From sequence record MK524176.1: a stretch of 64,000 bases of DNA. One strand, 5' to 3'. The DNA is from Escherichia phage PHB11. This document shows, piece by piece, positions 52,098 through 64,000 of the stretch. The translations under genes and the position numbers were made by a program. The notes under the pieces are model-generated. The model was not told where the DNA came from. It was given only the letters and a program-made list of their open reading frames with translations, and made no database searches. Numbering within the stretch: position 1 is the first letter of the stretch; every line of letters starts with the position of its first letter.

Positions 52098-52646
52098 ATG
52101 AAGAAGTTGATTCTAGGTTTGTGCTTAATGTTTACAGCACACTTATCTTATGCAGTTGACTGCCCAGAGCTATCAATTAGCCAAAAAGTAAACATGTTAA
52201 AAGCTTACCAGTATGGTGAGAATAATATGGGTAAAGGTTGGGGTATCACTCTAGCTGCTATAGCCTTACAAGAGTCAGAGTTAGGTCTGAAGGTAGAGAA
52301 TAAAAAGACCCATGACTATGGTATCTTCCAGAATCACTTGAAGACTGTTGTAAAGCGTAACAAAATCAGTCCTAATGTGGCTAAAAAGAAACTCTTAAAA
52401 GACTTTGACTATGCTGCAAAGGAAACACACAAAGAGCTTGAGTTTTGGACTAAGGTACATGGTCAACCAAAGTCAAAGAAGACTTTACAAAAAGTTTTAG
52501 CGTCATATAATGCTGGGTATTCGTACAAAATCCCTAAAGCTAAGAAATACTCTCAAGATGTTTACAACAATATGAAAGTCATCGCTCAATGTGAATTTGC
52601 AACAAACATTTCTAAGGTAAACCATGAAAAAATTAAGAAAGTCTGA
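52098..52646 (+). CDS. Secreted lytic transglycosylase (SLT domain); endolysin candidate
   Basis: Signal peptide MKKLILGLCLMFTAHLSYA; SLT motifs ALQESELG, YGIFQ, SYNAGYSY. Confidence 0.6.
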   Translation: MKKLILGLCLMFTAHLSYAVDCPELSISQKVNMLKAYQYGENNMGKGWGITLAAIALQESELGLKVENKKTHDYGIFQNHLKTVVKRNKISPNVAKKKLLKDFDYAAKETHKELEFWTKVHGQPKSKKTLQKVLASYNAGYSYKIPKAKKYSQDVYNNMKVIAQCEFATNISKVNHEKIKKV

Positions 52647-56139: not shown

Positions 56140-56207
56140 GAAACTCTGTAGAATATTCACAATAGGTTAAGCCTTTCTTATCTGGTAAATTTTTCAGGTA
56201 AGGAGGG

Positions 56208-56406
56208 CTTTTTCATTTCAGGATTGTGCAGGTAGAGTTCTGGACAGAAATCTGTAGAGAAAATTTTGAACTCCAAAGAGAAAATTCATTTTCAAACTGT
56301 GCAGGTAATCTCCAAAGAGCTTTTTCATTTTCAAAACGTGCAGACCCCGCTCAGGTCGGGCAAGAAAAATCATTTTAGAATTGTGCAGGTAGGTGGGTGC
56401 AGGTGG
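56208..56406. repeat. Iteron-like direct repeat array in non-coding DNA
   Basis: Four to five copies of TTCATTT(T)CA-N4-5-TGTGCAGGTA (TGTGCAGGTA at 56225, 56298, 56382; degenerate CGTGCAGAC at 56337; GTGCAGGTG at 56397); adjacent 38-39 bp tandem pair starting CTCCAAAGAG at 56271 and 56310. Confidence 0.6.
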
Positions 56407-56568
56407 GGATGTCGCCATTTCTCACAAGGCTACCACATCTGAAAAGAAAAGTCAACAGAAAAATTTGTAGCGGATTGAAAAATAATTCTTGATTGTAGTT
56501 CTGTTTTGTGGTAGTCGCGTGCGCCCGTTTCATTACAGTTTTTGCAAAAAATATTTTTAAAATTCCTA

Positions 56569-56597
56569 TTGACTCTTTGAATATGGTTATCTAATAT
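56569..56597 (+). promoter_or_regulatory. Sigma70-like promoter for the first early gene
   Basis: TTGACT, 17 bp spacer, TAATAT, about 50 nt upstream of ATG 56648. Confidence 0.45.
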
Positions 56598-56647
56598 TTG
56601 CATCAGACGGGCAATCAAGCCCACTTCCTAAACTGGAGAATCAAAAA

Positions 56648-56854
56648 ATGCTTTACAGTCGTGAATTGATGGTTACAACTAACGTTAACACAAAGGTAAA
56701 ACGTTTTTATATGCAAGTGTGCGGCGCATGGCGTAGAATATCAGAAGCTGACTATTGCAACTATGTAGAAACGGCTATTAATTCTAATTGCTACCTTACA
56801 ATAAACACTAAGAAGTTTACAAGACAGACAGCAATTTACTACTACGATAAATAA
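56648..56854 (+). CDS. Small early-region protein, unknown
   Basis: 68 aa; TIR CCTAAACTGGAGAATCAAAAAATG. Confidence 0.4.
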   Translation: MLYSRELMVTTNVNTKVKRFYMQVCGAWRRISEADYCNYVETAINSNCYLTINTKKFTRQTAIYYYDK

Positions 56855-56945
56855 AAAAGTACTTTACAGGGGGCTTAAAAGCTGATATCTTAAGCCCCAG
56901 ATAAAGAGCTTTACTAAACTAACCCTTAAACTAGGAGATTCAAAA
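56855..56945 (+). promoter_or_regulatory. Early cassette, class A
   Basis: AAGTACTTTACA, hairpin GGGGCTTAA-N11-TTAAGCCCC (TTTACA-17-TATCTT overlaps it), AGATAAAGAGCTTTAC, TIR ...CTAGGAGATTCAAAAATG. Confidence 0.45.
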
Positions 56946-57326
56946 ATGGCTTATCGTGCACCTAAATTCATCAACAAAGACAACTTTCGCAACGCACTGG
57001 AGAAGTCACTTGATGAAAATTTTAAAGGTAATATTATCGTTGTTCACGCATTCAATTTTAAGTATGATGTAAACGGGAATAGAATCAACCATTACACAGC
57101 AACCATGTTAGATGGTACGCTATCAAGTGAAAAAGCTGTACTGAATGCACTTGCAGGACGTGGTAAAAACCTGATAAGATGCGATAAGAGACGTTATCAG
57201 GGTGGCGCATATGGTTATGATGATGCTGTTTATCATCTTGAAAATATGGGCTATTCAGTGGAAAAAGCTGGAGTGTCTCAAATAATCGGCAGTGACGGCT
57301 ATGTGACAATTTTCAAAATTAACTAA
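56946..57326 (+). CDS. Small early-region protein, unknown
   Basis: 126 aa ORF preceded by a class A cassette. Confidence 0.45.
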   Translation: MAYRAPKFINKDNFRNALEKSLDENFKGNIIVVHAFNFKYDVNGNRINHYTATMLDGTLSSEKAVLNALAGRGKNLIRCDKRRYQGGAYGYDDAVYHLENMGYSVEKAGVSQIIGSDGYVTIFKIN

Positions 57327-57414
57327 TAAAGTACTTTACAGGGGGCTTATAGTTCGATAAAGTAAGCCCCAGATAAAGAGCTTTACCACTAAATCCTAAA
57401 TTGGAGATTCAAAA
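57327..57414 (+). promoter_or_regulatory. Early cassette, class A
   Basis: TAAAGTACTTTA palindrome overlapping the upstream stop, GGGGCTTA...TAAGCCCC hairpin, conserved TIR. Confidence 0.45.
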
Positions 57415-57705
57415 ATGGCTATTATTAAAAACGTTGTAATTCCTGCAAAAACTCGTGATGACGCTCGCATCATGGCGAAAAAGTTAGGCGGGAAAGTGGT
57501 TGACAACGGAAAACAAACTGCTGTAAGGTGGAACGTGAAGGCGGATAAACAAATGAATTTAAAAAATTCACCAATAAACCTTTTTACATGTGTAAACACT
57601 ATCGGGAAAACGAATGTATACACTAAAAAGGCATATATCAGACGCATCGCCATGACGTCACCTATTCGCACAATGAGAAGTCATGCAAAGCTGAAAATTA
57701 AGTAA
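57415..57705 (+). CDS. Small early-region protein, unknown (basic)
   Basis: 96 aa ORF preceded by a class A cassette. Confidence 0.45.
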   Translation: MAIIKNVVIPAKTRDDARIMAKKLGGKVVDNGKQTAVRWNVKADKQMNLKNSPINLFTCVNTIGKTNVYTKKAYIRRIAMTSPIRTMRSHAKLKIK

Positions 57706-57795
57706 TAGAGTACTTTACAGGGGGCTTAAAAGCTGATATCTTAAGCCCCAGATAAAGAGCTTTACCACTCAATCCTTAAACTAGGAGATTCAAAA
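57706..57795 (+). promoter_or_regulatory. Early cassette, class A
   Basis: GAGTACTTTACA, GGGGCTTAA...TTAAGCCCC hairpin, conserved TIR. Confidence 0.45.
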
Positions 57796-58308
57796 ATGAA
57801 AACTGTAGACGCTACCTTTGAAGTTGTAAAAGAAAAATTTTCCATCATTTACGAAGCTGTCAATTGCTACGAAGCAAGCCATAATCTTGATAATTGGAAG
57901 TTTACAGATGACCATCAAGGCGGTGTGACTATTAAAAACCCCAACTGTCAGCGTAATGGATTTAAATATGCAATTCCTTTACATTACAGCCTTAAACAGC
58001 TTTCAATTGACTATGCAAAACAAGGCCGGGAAAATCCATCGAAAGAGGCTTACATCAGCTTACAGAAAGAACTAGAAAGAGATTTAGAGGCTTCAGAATA
58101 TAACATCGCCGCGAAAGTTGTAGATGCAAACGGTAGCACGGTTTTAGAGAGTTTTTATATTGGTTATGCTTTCGATTGGTGCTACAGTGACGGCGATGAT
58201 TTAGATGACAGACTAAAAGAGGAAGTGAACAACGCAGACGCAGAATCTGAAGTATTAGAACGCTTGGAAGCATTAAAAGATTCAGTGATGAATATCTTTA
58301 AGAACTAA
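57796..58308 (+). CDS. Small early-region protein, unknown (acidic C-terminus)
   Basis: 170 aa ORF preceded by a class A cassette. Confidence 0.45.
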   Translation: MKTVDATFEVVKEKFSIIYEAVNCYEASHNLDNWKFTDDHQGGVTIKNPNCQRNGFKYAIPLHYSLKQLSIDYAKQGRENPSKEAYISLQKELERDLEASEYNIAAKVVDANGSTVLESFYIGYAFDWCYSDGDDLDDRLKEEVNNADAESEVLERLEALKDSVMNIFKN

Positions 58309-58399
58309 ATAGATTTCTTTACACGGGGCTAACAAGCGGATATGATAGCCCCAGATAAAGAGATTTATCAAATTAACCCTTAAACTAGGAGATTCAAAA
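58309..58399 (+). promoter_or_regulatory. Early cassette, class A variant
   Basis: TTTACA, 17 bp spacer, TATGAT with compensating hairpin GGGGCTA...TAGCCCC; conserved TIR. Confidence 0.45.
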
Positions 58400-58696
58400 A
58401 TGAAATTATCAAATAAAGTTAGGGAAAACCTTAGCAAATTACTCAACAAAATTGATTTTATAGAGACATCAAGGAATAGTCATGATGTTATGGAATGGTT
58501 ACACGGCAAAATAAAAGGCCGTCGTGTAGTGATTTGCTTATGGAATAGTTGCAGGGAGTATAAAAAGCCTGTATTGCAAATTAATGTTTATGATGATACT
58601 TTTAAAAGTCCTGTAAAGTCTAAAAGCGATTTATTAGAATCCTATGAGATAACTGTAAATGGCAAAGTATCACGTAAAGAGGAAACACCATGTTAA
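58400..58696 (+). CDS. Small early-region protein, unknown
   Basis: 98 aa ORF preceded by a class A cassette. Confidence 0.45.
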   Translation: MKLSNKVRENLSKLLNKIDFIETSRNSHDVMEWLHGKIKGRRVVICLWNSCREYKKPVLQINVYDDTFKSPVKSKSDLLESYEITVNGKVSRKEETPC

Positions 58697-59022
58697 TGAC
58701 TGGTATCACTGCAATCATTGCCATTTTCGCGCTATATAAGGCATATAAAGCCTATAATCTAGCAAATAAGGCAATCACACAGCAAGTTAGCAATAACCTT
58801 GTAGAGAGCTTTCTAGGGCGTTTAAGTGATGAGCAAATAAAGCGGCTAGAGATGAGCTTCAGATATAAAGCGAAAACCTATCAGATAAGTGACATCTTCA
58901 AAGATGATTTCCAGTTAGTTGATGATTATAATTCTCTGATAAATGCTTTAAACATCAGTGACTTGAAAGACTATCACGCTGTAATTGTTCAAGAATTGAG
59001 CAAACGAAAACAAAGTGTTTGA
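58690..59022 (+). CDS. Small early-region protein, unknown
   Basis: 110 aa ORF overlapping the upstream stop; N-terminal hydrophobic helix. Confidence 0.4.
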   Translation: MLMTGITAIIAIFALYKAYKAYNLANKAITQQVSNNLVESFLGRLSDEQIKRLEMSFRYKAKTYQISDIFKDDFQLVDDYNSLINALNISDLKDYHAVIVQELSKRKQSV

Positions 59023-59113
59023 CACTGATTTTTAGATAGGTTAAATTACACATCAACGGGGAGGGGATGACCTTCCCCACTAAATAAAGTCCTTAAACTA
59101 GGAGATTCTAAAA
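59019..59113 (+). promoter_or_regulatory. Early cassette, class B (promoter, 5' UTR hairpin, TIR)
   Basis: TTGACA, 17 bp spacer, TAAATT, ATCAACGGGGAGGGGATGACCTTCCCC hairpin, ACTAAATAAAGTCCTTAAACTAGGAGATTCTAAAAATG. Confidence 0.5.
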
Positions 59114-59272
59114 ATGTTTTGTGCAGGTGATAAAGTTGTCTGGAATGATATAGATGACGGTTTATGTACGAAAGTTGTTGTTATCTTAGAAATTGATTAT
59201 ATCACTGGTGTTGCAACTGTAGCAGATAATGATATAATCTTTGATGTCTTAATTAGTGAACTGTCAAAATAA
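59114..59272 (+). CDS. Small early-region protein (not in ORF track, 52 aa)
   Basis: ATG right after a class B cassette; translation MFCAGDKVVWNDIDDGLCTKVVVILEIDYITGVATVADNDIIFDVLISELSK. Confidence 0.4.
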   Translation: MFCAGDKVVWNDIDDGLCTKVVVILEIDYITGVATVADNDIIFDVLISELSK

Positions 59273-59297
59273 AGTCCTTAAACTAGGAGATTCAAAA
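59273..59297 (+). promoter_or_regulatory. TIR-only module (no own promoter), operonic with 59114..59272
   Basis: AAAGTCCTTAAACTAGGAGATTCAAAAATG immediately after the upstream stop. Confidence 0.45.
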
Positions 59298-59570
59298 ATG
59301 TACACTACTAACAACGGTCGCACCTTAAATGCAACCCTACGCCACTATGTGAACGGTGTAATGCACTTCGAGGATTTACAAGCTGAACAGCACATTTTGG
59401 ATTGGCAACTTGCAGGATTCCAAAAAACTGCTACCGGATACGGGAAAAAGATTCCAACTAGCTGGAAAGTATACTACGAAGGCCGTTTGCGTAGAATTTA
59501 TCAAGATGTATGCGGCAATAGCGCATCAAGTTACATCATAGTAAAAGGCAAAAAGCTGCATTTAGCATAA
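59298..59570 (+). CDS. Small early-region protein, unknown
   Basis: Start set at MYTTNNG (59298); the track start 59256 reads through the conserved TIR. Confidence 0.45.
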   Translation: MYTTNNGRTLNATLRHYVNGVMHFEDLQAEQHILDWQLAGFQKTATGYGKKIPTSWKVYYEGRLRRIYQDVCGNSASSYIIVKGKKLHLA

Positions 59571-59655
59571 AGTACTTTACAAGGGGCTTATAAGTCTGTA
59601 CAGTAAGCCCCAGATAAAGAGCTTTACCACTAAATCCTAAATTGGAGATTCAAAA
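59571..59655 (+). promoter_or_regulatory. Early cassette, class A
   Basis: TAAAGTACTTTA palindrome, GGGGCTTA...TAAGCCCC hairpin, conserved TIR. Confidence 0.45.
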
Positions 59656-60060
59656 ATGGCTATTAATAATCGTGAGTTATCTATCTTAAAAGCACGTTTG
59701 ACCGTTAACCGGATTAATGTTATCACATCAGCAGCACCGGATGAAACACTGCAAAACATTATTGGGAAGATTCAAAGTGTTATCTTAGACGTTGAAAGCG
59801 TAAAAAACTCATTGGCTGACGTTGCAGCCGGTATCACGCTAGACGGTGCACAACATGAGATGGCCGACATGTTAGGCAAATCAAAGGTAATGAATAAAGA
59901 ATTAGACTTGAAAATGTTTCGATTTGCTGTTAAAGTGTGGCTATCCGTCGAGTATGACGCTAATTTTGCAATCGCTGATTTCTTTGCCACTTGGTTACAA
60001 CGTAACTTAACAAATCATGATTTCCGTGATGTCTGTGATGCAATCTACGCAGAACTTTAA
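59656..60060 (+). CDS. Small early-region protein, unknown
   Basis: 134 aa ORF preceded by a class A cassette. Confidence 0.45.
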   Translation: MAINNRELSILKARLTVNRINVITSAAPDETLQNIIGKIQSVILDVESVKNSLADVAAGITLDGAQHEMADMLGKSKVMNKELDLKMFRFAVKVWLSVEYDANFAIADFFATWLQRNLTNHDFRDVCDAIYAEL

Positions 60061-60160
60061 AAAGATGTTGACACTGATTTTTAGATAGATTAAATTACTC
60101 ATCAACGGGGAGGCAATAACCTCCCTACTAAATAAAGTCCTTAAACTAGGAGATTCTAAA
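60061..60160 (+). promoter_or_regulatory. Early cassette, class B
   Basis: TTGACA (60068-60073), 17 bp spacer, TAAATT, ATCAACGGGGAGG...CCTCCC hairpin, conserved TIR. Confidence 0.5.
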
Positions 60161-60358
60161 ATGGCTATTATTAACGGCTTAACCATTGAAACAACACACA
60201 TCAAAGATATCAAAGTTGGTGATGTAGTCCTTTCCCACGGCGTAGAAAAAACTGTCACTGCAAAGGATATCAAAGAGGATTCTTTCATGGGTAGAACTCT
60301 CTTCGGTGATTCTTATTGCTTAGGTTATCTTGCAGTTTTAAAAGTTGTCAAAAATTAA
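60161..60358 (+). CDS. Small early-region protein, unknown
   Basis: 65 aa ORF preceded by a class B cassette. Confidence 0.4.
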   Translation: MAIINGLTIETTHIKDIKVGDVVLSHGVEKTVTAKDIKEDSFMGRTLFGDSYCLGYLAVLKVVKN

Positions 60359-60450
60359 GTAATAAAGTACTTTACAAGGGGCTTAAAAAGTTGGTATCTT
60401 AAGCCCCAGATAAAGAGCTTTACACAGTCCTTAAACTAGGAGATTAAAAA
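60359..60450 (+). promoter_or_regulatory. Early cassette, class A
   Basis: TAAAGTACTTTACA, GGGGCTTAA...TTAAGCCCC hairpin, TIR variant CTAGGAGATTAAAAAATG. Confidence 0.45.
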
Positions 60451-60699
60451 ATGATGAATTATTTAAACATTCCCGACACTTGCAAACTGTTAACGCAACC
60501 AGAAAATTTAGGTAAGGCTTACCTATACCATATGCCAAATAATACGGCAAAAACTTATAGTTACACTGTTAACCGATTCACGGCATACGCTGCAAAAAAC
60601 GGTTACAAGGTTGTTACTCAAAAAGTAACACTGTTTACAACTGTTGAGGAACTCCCCACGGTTGCAGTTAAACTGATTTTTTCAAAGAAAACTAAATAG
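60451..60699 (+). CDS. Small early-region protein, unknown
   Basis: 82 aa ORF preceded by a class A cassette. Confidence 0.45.
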   Translation: MMNYLNIPDTCKLLTQPENLGKAYLYHMPNNTAKTYSYTVNRFTAYAAKNGYKVVTQKVTLFTTVEELPTVAVKLIFSKKTK

Positions 60700-60784
60700 A
60701 TTTCTTTACACGGGGTTATCAAGCTGATAAGATAGCCCCAGATAAAGAAATTTATCAAATAAATCCTAAACTGGAGATTCAAAA
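60700..60784 (+). promoter_or_regulatory. Early cassette, class A variant
   Basis: TTTACA, 17 bp spacer, TAAGAT with hairpin GGGGTTATC...GATAGCCCC; conserved TIR. Confidence 0.45.
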
Positions 60785-61327
60785 ATGAAATGTTTTCACG
60801 GTACTACTCAAGAAAACTTTATCAACCTGATTAATAACGGTGATAAACCATCAGGCGCATGGAATTGTTCTGATATGGATGGGAATTTTTACGTTTACCC
60901 AGAGAATAAAATCTATGGCGACGATGAGGAAGAAATAATCTTTGAAGGTATCCAGCAAGCTCTGGGCAATGCCACTATCACCGCAGCTTTTCAGATGAAA
61001 ACTCAAAACATTGTTATCTTGGAACTTGAGATTCCAGAAGATGAGCTAAACGATGATTATTCTTGTGATAATATGTCGAGCGTGGCAAGTTTTACAGAAT
61101 ATTTCGATTTAAATTGGATTAAAAAGGTTTACATCACTGAATTTAATGCTATGTATTCGCCTTTTTGTCTTCCTTCACTGGATAACCCAAATATGAATTA
61201 TCTTGATGAGACATTAGAACTACTTGCTAAAAGTGTTCAACAATCGGACAGTATTCAGGTTTTTTGTGACATCATGGACACACTAACGGAAAACATCGCA
61301 GAAGAGGATTTAAAGAGCTTTTTCTAA
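60785..61327 (+). CDS. Small early-region protein, unknown (acidic)
   Basis: 180 aa ORF preceded by a class A cassette. Confidence 0.45.
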   Translation: MKCFHGTTQENFINLINNGDKPSGAWNCSDMDGNFYVYPENKIYGDDEEEIIFEGIQQALGNATITAAFQMKTQNIVILELEIPEDELNDDYSCDNMSSVASFTEYFDLNWIKKVYITEFNAMYSPFCLPSLDNPNMNYLDETLELLAKSVQQSDSIQVFCDIMDTLTENIAEEDLKSFF

Positions 61328-61359
61328 AAACCTATGCAATCACATTATAAACACTATTC

Positions 61360-61380
61360 AGCCCCTTGTAGGGGCTTTTA
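61360..61380 (+). terminator. Intrinsic terminator inside the early array
   Basis: GCCCC-TTGTA-GGGGC hairpin followed by TTTT. Confidence 0.55.
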
Positions 61381-61393
61381 AGAGGCTTAAATC

Positions 61394-61627
61394 ATGCTTA
61401 CAACCGTTTATCTTATCCTTTCTATATGTAATGGTCATTCATGCGATTTTAAAGGGCTTGAAGAGTTTACAGGAAGTAAAGAAAATGCTATTCAAGTTTG
61501 CCAGATAGCGAGACAAGACTATCCCGCAAGTGATGATATTCAGTGTTACTTTAAGACAGAAGATGAAGACGGTATCTATTTTGACAGTGTAGATGGTCAA
61601 TATGAAATTATCATTGAAAAAGACTAG
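61394..61627 (+). CDS. Small early-region protein, unknown
   Basis: 77 aa ORF with AGAGG SD; lacks the conserved cassette. Confidence 0.4.
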   Translation: MLTTVYLILSICNGHSCDFKGLEEFTGSKENAIQVCQIARQDYPASDDIQCYFKTEDEDGIYFDSVDGQYEIIIEKD

Positions 61628-61716
61628 ACAAGCCTGATAAAAGTCTGTAAATTGTCAATCAACGGGAGGGATGACCTTCCCCACTAAATAAAGTCCTTAA
61701 ACTAGGAGATTCAAAA
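61625..61716 (+). promoter_or_regulatory. Early cassette, class B
   Basis: TAGACA, 17 bp spacer, TAAATT, ATCAACGGGAGGGATGACCTTCCCC hairpin, conserved TIR. Confidence 0.45.
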
Positions 61717-62058
61717 ATGGCTTATGTAACCGTAATTACCGATAAAGCTGGCGCATCTTGGTCAACTCAAGTAAGCGATAAGATGTCACCTATGCAGTGC
61801 CTAAAATACTTTGAGCAATGGAACAAAGGCGAGGAAACAAGCCCCTTTCAAGTAATGCAGATTATCCATACAGATAACGAAGGGAAGAAAACTGTTTTGA
61901 ATAGTGAGTACTACGCAACCAGATTTGAAACGAGAAGTAAAGCAATGAAGCTCTTACGTGAATCCGGTTATTCTCATATTGCCGCGCTAATCTGGGATGA
62001 CCTCCTAAAAAGTCAGCGTATCAGCTACGTAAAACCTGAAAAAATATTCATCAGCTAA
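61717..62058 (+). CDS. Small early-region protein, unknown
   Basis: 113 aa ORF preceded by a class B cassette. Confidence 0.45.
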   Translation: MAYVTVITDKAGASWSTQVSDKMSPMQCLKYFEQWNKGEETSPFQVMQIIHTDNEGKKTVLNSEYYATRFETRSKAMKLLRESGYSHIAALIWDDLLKSQRISYVKPEKIFIS

Positions 62059-62090
62059 TCAATAACTTACAAAAAACTTTTAAAAAAGTG

Positions 62091-62119
62091 TTGACAATAC
62101 CCCTTGACATTGGTAATGT
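62091..62119 (+). promoter_or_regulatory. Additional promoter-like element with tandem TTGACA boxes
   Basis: TTGACA at 62091 and 62104; TAATGT 17 bp after the first. Confidence 0.35.
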
Positions 62120-62187
62120 TGTTCGAGGGGGTTTATCTAAAAGGGATTCACTTAAAAGATTCTTTATAGATAAACTGAAAAAATTGC

Positions 62188-62278
62188 TTGCAATCAGATA
62201 TCAAAGCAAGTAAATTACTAATCAACGGGAGGGATGACCTCCCCACTAAGTAAAGTCCTTAAACTAGGAGATTCTAAA
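62188..62278 (+). promoter_or_regulatory. Early cassette, class B
   Basis: TTGCAA, 17 bp spacer, TAAATT, ATCAACGGGAGGGATGACCTCCCC hairpin, TIR ...CTAGGAGATTCTAAAATG. Confidence 0.45.
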
Positions 62279-62809
62279 ATGAACAAGTTCAAAGCTATCA
62301 ATTACATTCGTTCAAATAGTGTTATGTCAAAACCTGTTAAAGACACTTACGAATTCCGTTGCAATGGTGTACACTTCGCAACCATCACCAAATCAGAAAA
62401 CGGGGCTTATTACGTCCATCGCCGTAATGTTGCAACTGTTGTAGTCTCTCATTTTATGCAAGCTATCGCGGAATTATTACCGTTATTCTTAGAGATTTAT
62501 CTAGATGATTGTAAAAACGTTCACAATCACGTTAAAAACCTTTTAAATGGTTATAAAATGGCTTATGAACGTTCTATCAAGTCCTTGAACAAGTTCTATA
62601 AAGCCCCTGTAAATACCGTTTCAATGGCCTACGGTATAGGTGGCTGGACTGTTAACCTTTCTCTAGTGGAAGAAATCGAACTTTATGATTTACGTCCTAG
62701 CGGTTACTCTAAGACACTGGGAGAAGGTTTAACGTTCAATATCAAGAACTTAGAAAAAACTTTAAAAGATATTGAAAAAGATATTGACGAGACAATCAAA
62801 AATCTGTAA
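62279..62809 (+). CDS. Small early-region protein, unknown
   Basis: Start set at MNKFKAI (62279); the track start 62234 reads through the TIR. Confidence 0.45.
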   Translation: MNKFKAINYIRSNSVMSKPVKDTYEFRCNGVHFATITKSENGAYYVHRRNVATVVVSHFMQAIAELLPLFLEIYLDDCKNVHNHVKNLLNGYKMAYERSIKSLNKFYKAPVNTVSMAYGIGGWTVNLSLVEEIELYDLRPSGYSKTLGEGLTFNIKNLEKTLKDIEKDIDETIKNL

Positions 62810-62878
62810 ATTGTCAATCAACGGGGAGGGGATGACCTTCCCCACTAAGTAAAGCCCTTAAACTAGGAGATTCAAAAA
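62784..62878 (+). promoter_or_regulatory. Early cassette, class B; promoter embedded in the 3' end of the upstream gene
   Basis: TTGACG, 17 bp spacer, TAAATT (overlapping stop codon), ATCAACGGGGAGGGGATGACCTTCCCC hairpin, conserved TIR. Confidence 0.45.
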
Positions 62879-63127
62879 ATGGCAACTATCCGCGCAACTG
62901 TTAACGAATTTGGCTTCTACTCTCTGGATGTTAAATTTGACCTTGTAGGCACTAACAACGCCTTTGAAATGGTGAAAGGCCTTATCAGTCAGATAATCAA
63001 AGATTATAATCCTTCGGATGAGTTCTGGGAAGAAACAAAACAGGAAGTTTTTACGCATGGTCACACTTATTACTATTGGGGAGAAAAAATCGTCTCCTTG
63101 TACTACGATAAACAAGGTTGCAACTAA
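62879..63127 (+). CDS. Small early-region protein, unknown
   Basis: 82 aa ORF preceded by a class B cassette. Confidence 0.45.
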   Translation: MATIRATVNEFGFYSLDVKFDLVGTNNAFEMVKGLISQIIKDYNPSDEFWEETKQEVFTHGHTYYYWGEKIVSLYYDKQGCN

Positions 63128-63165
63128 TCAACGCAACGGGGCTAAATAGCCCCAGATACCTGAAC

Positions 63166-63191
63166 AGCCCCTATTTAAAGGGGCTTTTTTA
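63166..63191 (+). terminator. Intrinsic terminator closing the early array
   Basis: AGCCCCT-ATTTA-AAGGGGCT hairpin followed by TTTTTT. Confidence 0.6.
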
Positions 63192-63529
63192 CGTCTAGCG
63201 AATCCTTATACAATCCCTTTCCACCTCCTTTCTAGAATCTTATCAGACCTTAAAAAGCAATAACTCTATAGCTTACTCTATAGCCCCTTATCAAATCAAC
63301 TTAAATATAAGCCCATAACCCGAAAGGGAAGGGCAACCATTAATTGGTATTGTTACCAATCCCTAAAACGCTCTATAAAGCTCTATAACAGCCTTATCAA
63401 TCTAACTTAAGGGATTGCATTACCTCACCCTTAAAAGCCCTTTATAGAGCTTCCCAGAGCCTTAAAAGAATCTTATAAGGGTGTGAGCTTTATCATCTCG
63501 TTAGCTATCTTGTGAATAACTAAAAAGGG

Positions 63530-63994
63530 CTTGTTAGTGTCTTAAAAGTATGTTATAGGGGCTTAAAAGTTACTTTGAAGTAGCTTAAAAGTTACTTTGA
63601 AGTAGCTTAAAAGTTACGTAAATGCTAGCCCCCTTAACATTTTCTTAACAATTTCTTAACAAACCCTACATAGTTATGCTTTTAAGGCACTTGTTAGCAA
63701 CTTGTTAGCCCCTTGTTAAATCTCTGTTAATACCTCGTAAAAGCCTTGTAAGAGCCTTTGGCATAGCCTTTAAAGCCCCTGTAAAGCCCTATAAAGAGCT
63801 TTCTATATAGTTGGGGTGTAATTACTAGAAAGAGACTAAAAAGAGCTTATAAGGAGCTATAAAGGGCTTTTAAGAGGGCTATTTAAAAGGTCACTAAGAG
63901 GGAAAGGGAACGATAAGAAAAGAGATAGTGACCATGTTAACAGCTTGTTAAAAAGATTAAACACTTGTTAGGAACTTGTTAATTATCTTAACAA
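63530..63994. repeat. Cluster of CTTGTTA(R) motifs in both orientations in non-coding DNA
   Basis: CTTGTTAG/CTTGTTAA at 63530, 63690, 63701, 63712, 63944, 63964, 63975; inverted CTTAACAA at 63644, 63655, 63987. Confidence 0.6.
63561..63617. repeat. Tandem direct repeat, 22 bp unit, about 2.6 copies
   Basis: GCTTAAAAGTTACTTTGAAGTA at 63561 and 63583, partial copy at 63605. Confidence 0.7.
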
Positions 63995-64000
63995 AATAAC

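Follow-up and report, generated by a model that had tools for sequence, protein, structure and literature searches.

The stretch of DNA under study is a 64,000-nt window from Escherichia phage PHB11 (sequence record MK524176.1), and one part of it, positions 56648-63127, raises a question of organization: how are 16 small genes, lined up on a single strand, each expressed, and how does such a line-up come to vary? The source of the window is a Felixounavirus, a Felix O1-like myovirus of the subfamily Ounavirinae; a megablast search with 56500-63200 matched 256 phage records, nearly all of them Felix O1-like (Felixounavirus and relatives), the top match being Escherichia phage EcoM2 at 94% identity across 89% of the query. 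The original prediction had described an array of 16 small genes driven by two classes, A and B, of repeated regulatory cassette. We confirm 16 + strand open reading frames (ORFs) of 52-180 aa, and we recover all seven class A sites (56855, 57327, 57706, 58309, 59571, 60359, and 60700) and all five class B sites, the latter as exact motif copies (59019, 60068, 61625, 62188, and 62784). To these we add a class B-like promoter at 56569, before the first gene. The claim that nearly every gene has a cassette holds for most of them; the gene at 59298 has only the leader and translation initiation region (TIR), as a single TIR-only remnant, and two genes have none (58690, which overlaps its upstream gene, and 61394, which lies behind its own terminator-like hairpin). 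The 13 cassettes are packed within 6.5 kb, all on the + strand, and neither of two covariance models (R1 for class A, R2 for class B) finds a further copy in the 64-kb window. We consider it probable that the region is a hyperplastic early accessory-gene array made of self-contained modules, each consisting of a regulatory cassette and a small ORFan.

Class A and class B cassettes

The class B motif TAAATTNNNNATCAACGGG occurs in five exact copies in the window, and the predicted arrangement of a TTGACA-like hexamer, a 17-nt spacer, and TAAATT is found at each, with TTGCAA as the -35 at 62188. The cassette at 59019-59113 shows the full layout (TTGACA, a 17-nt spacer, TAAATT, leader ATCAAC, hairpin GGGGAGGGGATGACCTTCCCC, and TIR), and the others lie at 60068-60160 (hairpin GGGGAGGCAATAACCTCCCT), 61625-61716 (-35 TAGACA), 62188-62278 (-35 TTGCAA at 62188-62193, -10 TAAATT at 62211-62216), and 62784-62878, where the promoter elements, from the -35 through the spacer to the -10, fall within the 3' end of gene 15. 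The class B-like first promoter (56569-56647) has its -35, TTGACT, at 56569-56574 and its -10, TAATAT, at 56592-56597, followed by a leader hairpin, GGGCAATCAAGCCC, at 56609-56622 and the TIR variant TCCTAAACTGGAGAATCAAAAA; its orthologs in relatives were recovered by model R2 (e.g., L001 1217-1320 and L012 5520-5623).

Model R2 recovers about 67 class B copies, 64 of them distinct, from 13 genomes. The -10 among the distinct copies is TAAATT in 51, TAAAGT in 6, and TAATAT in 4, and exactly 17 nt upstream one of TTGACA, TTGCAA, TTGACG, TAGACA, or TTGACT is found in 61/64. Per-column information is high in an upstream A-tract and in the -35, nearly absent from the spacer, and high again in the -10; the spacers themselves comprise 30 distinct sequences in at least four families that share fewer than 12 of 17 positions (about seven families by eye). 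Conserved hexamers held a set distance apart across an unconstrained spacer are what a sigma70 promoter predicts, and class B looks like one; the predicted combination of promoter, hairpin leader, and TIR is supported. The leader is very strongly conserved as ATCAACGGGG-hairpin-CCCCACTAAATAAAG-TIR. The hairpin is present in all copies, 4-6 nt past the predicted start, while its sequence varies (GGGGAGGG/CCTTCCCC, GGGAGG/CCTCCC, or GGGGC/GCCCC, the last in Moogle-type phages). We propose that class B would serve as a host sigma70 early promoter, composed of the A-tract, the TTGACA-like -35, the free 17-nt spacer, and TAAATT, with transcripts predicted to start a few bases ahead of the G/C-rich hairpin. 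This hairpin most likely shields the 5' end of the mRNA from decay, and would be followed by an AU-rich linker and then by a strong shared ribosome-binding region.

In three cases (59019-59024, 61625-61630, and 62784-62812) a class B promoter shares sequence with the end of the gene before it. The stop codons of genes 6 and 13 lie inside the -35 (TTGACA and TAGACA, respectively), the TAA stop of gene 15 lies inside TAAATT, and at 62784 the entire promoter is coding sequence. An additional strong promoter-like site is found just upstream of the 62188 cassette (TTGACA at 62091-62096, 17 nt, TAATGT at 62114-62119), followed by a long hairpin with arms GTTTATCTA at 62131-62139 and TAGATAAAC at 62167-62175. 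The GenBank record of ASO1A labels the equivalent of 62091-62175 as a promoter plus a terminator; the element could be a small RNA or a leader.

Class A is built differently. Its core, CCCCAGATAAAGAGCTTTAC, occurs 7 times in the window against 0.01 expected. The cassettes lie at 56855-56945 (-35 TTTACA at 56863, -10 TATCTT, a two-stem hairpin, and TIR), 57327-57414 (-10 TAAAGT, variant TIR), 57706-57795 (-10 TATCTT), 59571-59655 (-10 TACAGT), and 60359-60450 (18-nt spacer, -10 TATCTT). Two more form a divergent subtype, A2: 58309-58399, with the upper stem GGGGCTA/TAGCCCC, -10 TATGAT, and a perfect 13-bp lower stem, and 60700-60784, with GGGGTTATC/GATAGCCCC and -10 TAAGAT. Model R1 finds 75 + strand copies, 71 distinct, in 14 genomes from four genera, 4 of them in Erwinia phage Tian. 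The predicted hexamers, TTTACA and TAnnnT 17 nt apart, largely hold across this set: CTTTACA is invariant in the 71 distinct copies, the spacer is 17 nt in 64, 18 nt in 5, and 16 nt in 2, and the -10 takes the form of 12 different hexamers, all TAnnnT, in which T-12, A-11, and T-7 are invariant and positions -10 to -8 vary. Upstream of the -10, G is found at -14 in 66/71 copies and T at -15 in 38/71. The predicted start is the A/G of an invariant AGATAAAGAG, preceded by a G/C-rich discriminator (AAGCCCC). Class A thus looks, from these conserved positions, like a sigma70-like promoter built into a palindrome.

The class A hairpin extends further than originally described: a second, lower stem, AAAGTACTTTA / TAAAGAGCTTT, brings the total to ∼20 bp. 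RNAalifold on the seven window copies gives the lower stem as AAAGUACUUUA / UAAAGAGCUUU, then a 3x3 internal loop, and then the upper stem already noted; the lower stem measures 11-13 bp and the upper stem 9 bp. All copies fold to this one shape, with free energies of -20 to -25 kcal/mol and z scores of -3.7 to -7.7. In the alignment of 75 copies, pairing over the 20 pairs reaches 96.3%. Five pairs differ on both sides: G-C is replaced by U-A in the lower stem of 10 sequences and in the upper stem of the four Erwinia phage copies. The covariation score is 0.115, compared with 0.066 for shuffles (0/500 reach the observed value) and at most 0.048 for slid partners, and the compensatory changes that had been pointed out in the hairpin arms are thus real. 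In subtype A2 (58309 and 60700) a further A to U change repairs a lone A·A mismatch, producing perfect lower stems of 11-13 bp.

Taken together, the class A cassette would be a sigma70 promoter (CTTTACA, 17 nt, nGnTAnnnT) written into an imperfect palindrome. Its start is placed at the upper stem's 3' foot (AGATAAAG...), which means that RNA begun there would lack the hairpin. Because the 5' arm holds the -35 and the start lies at the foot of the upper stem, only read-through RNA from upstream should carry the two-stem, ∼20-bp hairpin with its internal loop. On such RNA the hairpin would most likely act as an RNase III-type intercistronic processing element or a 3' stabilizer, or as a weak insulator. 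No U-tract follows the hairpin of either class, the next bases being AGATAAAG in class A and ACTAAATAAAG in class B; the class A hairpin is therefore no canonical terminator, and we rejected the cassette hairpins of both classes as intrinsic terminators. For the same reason, we doubt the "terminator" labels that WebGeSTer gave to class B hairpins in ASO1A. A search of 55.5-64 kb against Rfam at E ≤ 1 gave no match.

Both classes had been said to end in the same TIR. The core, CCTTAAACTAGGAGATTC, is indeed present in 10 copies with at most one mismatch (0.06 expected), all between 56.9 and 62.9 kb, but four further genes carry a variant, TCCTAAAYTGGAGA(T/A)TC. The original prediction also proposed a RegA/RegB-like factor acting at GGAG, a proposal that found no support. 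Searches with the T4 proteins (tblastn, E ≤ 1, 50,697 phage records) gave 1140 records for RegB, 1135 of them over at least 80% of the query, with no Ounavirinae among the matches listed; those listed are T4-like genomes of ∼160-175 kb, one T4 fragment record, and one chance match (E = 0.4). With RegA, no Ounavirinae and no record of ∼85-90 kb appeared among the matches listed, and for both proteins these otherwise comprise only T4-like and other large myoviruses. One annotated exception, the "putative T4 endoribonuclease RegB" of Erwinia phage Tian (L003 1048-1560, upstream of the array), is by Pfam and BLASTP an SLT lytic transglycosylase; it is 45% identical to the window ORF at 52098-52646, and both proteins are SLT lytic transglycosylases with signal peptides. 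In T4, regB adjoins vs.1, an ORF of similar size, and the mis-annotation may have arisen from this adjacency.

What the TIR does retain bears on a broader version of this idea, in which the uniform leader and TIR are the target of a dedicated phage post-transcriptional regulator, RegB/RegA-like in effect but unrelated, that shuts off the array. Some ∼25 nt upstream of the ATG are common to 14/16 array genes, and the TIR is uniform inside a genome and different between lineages, as expected if TIR and factor co-evolve: the consensus is CCTTAAACTAGGAGATTCAAAA and CCTAAAYTGGAGATTCAAAA in Felixounavirus, CCTAAACTGGAGAATCTAAA in Mooglevirus, and CCCTTAWAAAGGAATCAAAA in Kolesnikvirus. (We compared consensus sequences; ungapped TIR identity within versus between genomes was too noisy, owing to 1-nt register shifts and spurious ORFs.) Every variant also keeps a pyrimidine tract complementary to the Shine-Dalgarno (SD) sequence, as UCCU/AGGA or UCC/GGA, and in the Erwinia phage as CCUU/AAGG or CCUC/GAGG. 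GGAG is found in 14/16 array SDs against 21/75 elsewhere, a comparison in which the array copies are non-independent and late genes use GGAG too; the motif is enriched in the array yet not avoided in the rest of the genome, and the homologous TIRs of the Erwinia relative have AAGGA/GAGGA in its place. Besides the lack of homologs among the matches listed, the weak occlusion of the SD also speaks against such a regulator: we rejected an SD-sequestering mini-hairpin as a strong regulatory feature, the effect being small (-2.4 to -3.6 kcal/mol; pairing probability 0.55 versus 0.41 in other genes), and treat it as a minor observation. The uniformity of the TIR can be explained without any factor, because the cassettes recombine and strong translation would be selected. 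We regard a dedicated regulator as quite improbable.

An alternative for class A retains the hairpin and dispenses with the promoter. The sites would then be RNA elements only (RNase III-type processing sites, stabilizers, or attenuators) on polycistronic transcripts from the class B and 56569 promoters, with the class A hexamers as by-products of the hairpin. The strength and covariation of the two-stem structure agree with this, as do the position of TTTACA within the lower stem, the pairing of T-7 at the base of the upper stem, and the distance of the -10 hexamers from consensus; annotators of relatives, moreover, never labeled these sites as promoters. Yet G-14, T-12, and A-11, which are invariant or at least 93% conserved, lie in an apical loop that otherwise varies freely, so pairing does not explain their conservation, and the 17-nt distance to TTTACA recurs in most copies. 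The pattern is that of sigma70 -10 information content, for which pairing does not account, and we judge the non-promoter explanation unlikely. A more ambitious proposal would have class A dual-coded, the same 60 bp being a sigma70 promoter in the DNA and, once read through, an RNase III-type processing hairpin in the RNA. Each early gene could then either be transcribed from its own start or be released by cleavage from a polycistronic message, with the lineage-specific leader/TIR and its SD pairing recognized by a phage factor that shuts off the whole array. For this combination as a whole we hold out little expectation.

Module exchange among relatives

The second half of the question, how the array varies, was approached by comparing 14 arrays, that of the window and those of 13 relatives, from four Ounavirinae genera. 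Gene-family maps reveal one backbone order in which single units of cassette plus gene are present or absent, and a few genes are unique to a single phage. Comparison of the gene content between cassettes, which had been suggested as a check, thus finds single-module indels among the 13 relatives, and the cassettes themselves are conserved in the related genomes, class A in all 14 and class B in 13. BLASTN of the window array against each relative yields 28 clusters of homology end-points, of which 22 fall in cassettes (±8 nt); cassettes account for 23% of the array length (binomial p ∼1e-9, inflated by shared ancestry and by a gene-boundary effect).

Cassette subparts also reassort between orthologous positions. 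VpaE1, which lacks g9, has a hybrid cassette with a 5' half of the type found upstream of g9 and a linker/TIR of the type found upstream of g2; MET-P1-301 has an A2/A1 chimera that breaks a lower-stem pair; the g11 cassette of Shy carries the linker and TIR of its neighbor; and close relatives differ in the cassette ahead of g7, which is of three subtypes among them. Homology breakpoints at 59113/59117 and at 59267 surround gene 7, on the far side of which is the TIR-only mini-cassette (59273-59297, +), a duplicated AAATAAAGTCCTTAAACTAGGAGATTCAAAA with no promoter and no hairpin, such that gene 8 is preceded by just the last ∼35 nt of leader and TIR together. Gene 7 has duplicated leader/TIR on either side and four relatives lack it, so a TIR can suffice as the homology. 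We propose that the near-identical ∼90-bp cassettes serve as portable homology, and that recombination between cassettes would delete, insert, and swap whole modules while keeping the cassettes uniform within a lineage. In a wider scan of IMG/VR for distant lineages with GATAAAGAGCTTTA, true cassettes among the matches listed were confined to Felix O1-, Moogle-, and SUSP-like genomes of ∼86-91 kb, the rest being chance 14-mer matches.

Could the repeats instead be selfish or recently duplicated DNA without a regulatory role, for example, the remains of tandem duplication? The high identity between copies in one genome is what such an origin would give. The copies, however, are always intergenic, gene-oriented, and terminated exactly at a start codon; the same layout recurs in four genera, even in the Erwinia phages with their diverged cassette sequences; conservation is concentrated at particular positions (hexamers, stems, SD) and not uniform; and the genes between the cassettes are mutually unrelated. 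We find this explanation hardly credible. The likely account, in our view, is that class A and class B are sigma70 promoter cassettes with hairpins that double as portable homology for module shuffling. Several points weigh against it. The transcription starts, processing sites, and hairpin functions are all inferred from sequence. In class A, pairing could have helped to keep the -35 hexamer invariant, since this hexamer lies within the lower stem as well, and the -10 hexamers are weak (TAAAGT, TATCTT) next to a G/C-rich discriminator (AAGCCCC). The class A covariation amounts to few independent events, because the copies are related and recombining. The breakpoint statistic likewise overstates independence, since high-scoring segment pairs naturally end at gene boundaries where whole genes differ.

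Array genes and flanking DNA

The array follows an operon that runs from rIIA-rIIB through an SLT-like gene and a polynucleotide kinase gene on to a macro-domain "phosphatase" gene. This operon ends at an intrinsic terminator at 56169-56217 (+), a 17-bp stem plus T-run that forms the left boundary of the array; the right boundary is the terminator at 63166-63190 (+). A consensus terminator scan found only these two flanking terminators and none internal to the array. They correspond to t13 and t23 of Felix O1 (PMC3185647, Table 2).

All array genes lie on the + strand. Gene 1 (56648-56854, 68 aa) belongs to phrog_5293 and gene 2 (56946-57326, 126 aa) to phrog_4495; gene 3 (57415-57705, 96 aa) and gene 4 (57796-58308, 170 aa) follow. 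Genes 5 and 6 (58400-58696 and 58690-59022; 98 and 110 aa) overlap with no cassette between them and are always found together in relatives. Gene 7 (59114-59272, 52 aa) is absent from Felix O1, VpaE1, humlepung, and HY02, and is followed by gene 8 (59298-59570, 90 aa), gene 9 (59656-60060, 134 aa), and gene 10 (60161-60358, 65 aa). Gene 11 (60451-60699, 82 aa) is absent from finno, VpaE1, Shy, humlepung, HY02, and Felix O1. Genes 12 and 13 (60785-61327 and 61394-61627; 180 and 77 aa) are invariably paired in relatives; a terminator-like hairpin, GCCCCTTGTAGGGGC followed by TTTT, separates them at ∼61360-61380 and overlaps the SD of gene 13. The array ends with gene 14 (61717-62058, 113 aa), gene 15 (62279-62809, 176 aa counted from the cassette ATG), and gene 16 (62879-63127, 82 aa). 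For the 16 array proteins, Pfam returned no family above threshold, and every PHROGs match was labeled "unknown function".

Gene 16 is a homolog of Felix O1 ORF23, and Gp23 is named among the Felix O1 virion proteins identified by proteomics (PMC3185647). A small protein encoded in the early region and carried in the virion brings to mind the internal proteins of T4. The locus of those proteins is likewise shuffled. By reverse transcription PCR in Felix O1, the array homologs ORF16, 20, 21, and 22 were detected at 5 min and ORF14, 17, 19, and 23 at 25 min (PMC3185647, Table 3).

In phage SUSP1 the homologous array is agp095-agp111 (L136 6200-12920, RefSeq numbering). When SUSP1 was assayed by CRISPRi-ART, agp095-111 were all outside the Fit and Semi-Fit lists (PMC11879866, Supplementary Discussion C), which fits dispensable accessory genes; the authors mention false negatives (PMC11879866). 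We considered the "Fit" genes agp046-061 as array members and rejected them, since the array is agp095-111 and none of it is Fit. The guides tile the ribosome-binding region of each gene, and many array genes were probably knocked down jointly; per-gene fitness calls within the array are complicated because the near-identical TIRs make guides cross-hit.

Between the upstream terminator and the first promoter of the array, ∼430 bp of non-coding DNA contain four direct copies of CATTTYNNNAWYGTGCAG(GTA), at 56214, 56287, 56326, and 56371 (56204-56400), each after a T- or A-run. One to three exact copies occur in the same place in 11/13 Ounavirinae loci, and the Erwinia phage equivalent is four copies of TCATTTTnnAWTYGTGCATAG; these repeats could be protein-binding iterons. 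Past the array terminator, 63130-64000 is a long non-coding stretch at a convergent-transcription junction that runs off the end of the window. It contains phased short repeats (CTTGTTA at 11-nt spacing, AGCTTAAAAGTTAC three times at 22 nt, and TATAAAGRGCTTT) as well as class A-like fragments, GGGGCTTAAAAG at 63557 and CCCCTGTAAAG at 63776, the latter the reverse complement of CTTTACAGGGG. The GenBank records of several relatives start or finish near this stretch; for that reason a genome end, an origin, or a packaging signal may be located here.

Prior records and comparison with known systems

Parts of these cassettes have been recorded before. The Felix O1 genome paper lists, without interpretation, 57-bp and 39-bp "direct repeats" between genes 15/16, 19/20, 18/19, and 20/21 (PMC3185647), which correspond to one cassette of class A and one of class B. 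The same paper found few early promoters and stated that the organization of transcription was not known (PMC3185647), and the cassettes answer the question it left open. In the GenBank record of ASO1A some class B hexamers are labeled "promoter", the class B leader hairpins "rho-independent terminator", and class A is unannotated; we suggest that these "terminator" hairpins are probably leader structures. The phiEa21-4 genome paper (Lehman 2009) reportedly describes a dispersed conserved terminator and not these cassettes. We found no description of the cassette layout or of its presence in Ounavirinae, and both have apparently gone undescribed until now. The subfamily includes Felix O1 and many candidates for therapy and biocontrol, and for the engineering of these phages the cassettes show where DNA can safely be inserted or deleted. 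Class A would furthermore be a compact natural example of a promoter nested in an RNA hairpin, one that predicts two transcript populations.

Several known systems share individual features with the array. The concentration of GGAG SDs in early genes resembles the T4 RegB/RegA system, which differs in that here no homolog was found among the matches listed, GGAG is not avoided elsewhere, and it is not conserved in the Erwinia relatives. The class B hairpin, ∼4-6 nt from the predicted +1, resembles 5' stabilizers such as the ompA leader, in which a hairpin near the 5' end slows 5'-end-dependent RNase E decay; class B has no homology to that leader and its start is a predicted one, and a stabilizing role is suggested by position. 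For class A there is a likeness to the RNase III processing sites that Dunn and Studier reportedly described in 1983 between the early genes of phage T7: an irregular intercistronic hairpin of some two helical turns (∼20 bp) with an internal loop, in an early region without internal terminators. Cleavage at T7-type sites by RNase III would leave a protective 3' hairpin on the upstream message. Class A has no sequence similarity to the T7 sites, cleavage here is a prediction, and the T7 sites are not known to be built around a promoter.

The closest comparison is with the promoter early stem-loop (PeSL) cassettes of T4-like phages (Arbiol et al. 2010, PMC2839356; Comeau et al. 2014, PMC4122927), to which the original prediction had likened the array. 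Like PeSLs, the cassettes are ∼70-100 bp intergenic composites that combine an AT-rich tract with a sigma70-like early promoter, a stem-loop of the form GGGG...CCCC, and an SD, clustered in many copies among the small ORFans of a hyperplastic region, with indels and replacements between close relatives that end in cassettes and with chimeric cassettes. The PeSL stem-loop, however, lies just upstream of the -35 (PMC4122927, Fig. 3 legend), where it is described as a terminator or attenuator for transcription arriving from upstream, and one has been shown to terminate transcription (PMC2839356, PMC4122927), whereas here the stem-loop overlaps the spacer and -10 (class A) or follows the +1 (class B), class A has an extra lower stem, and the shared part runs through a near-invariant TIR to the ATG. 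Because the cassette hairpins have no U-tract, the PeSL model applies here only without its "terminator" half, a further point against our account. Mini-circles from recombination between adjacent cassettes, and promoter and terminator activity measured in reporters, belong to the PeSL side, and our case is argued from sequence in Ounavirinae, not in T4-like phages. The likeness therefore holds for shuffling, breakpoints, and chimeras and not for the order of elements, in which one defining PeSL feature is missing; a PeSL-like reading is supported in function and evolution. The mechanism would be the same as that proposed for PeSLs, which would extend cassette-driven shuffling from T4-like phages to an unrelated myovirus subfamily and suggests that it is a general strategy for the turnover of accessory early genes.

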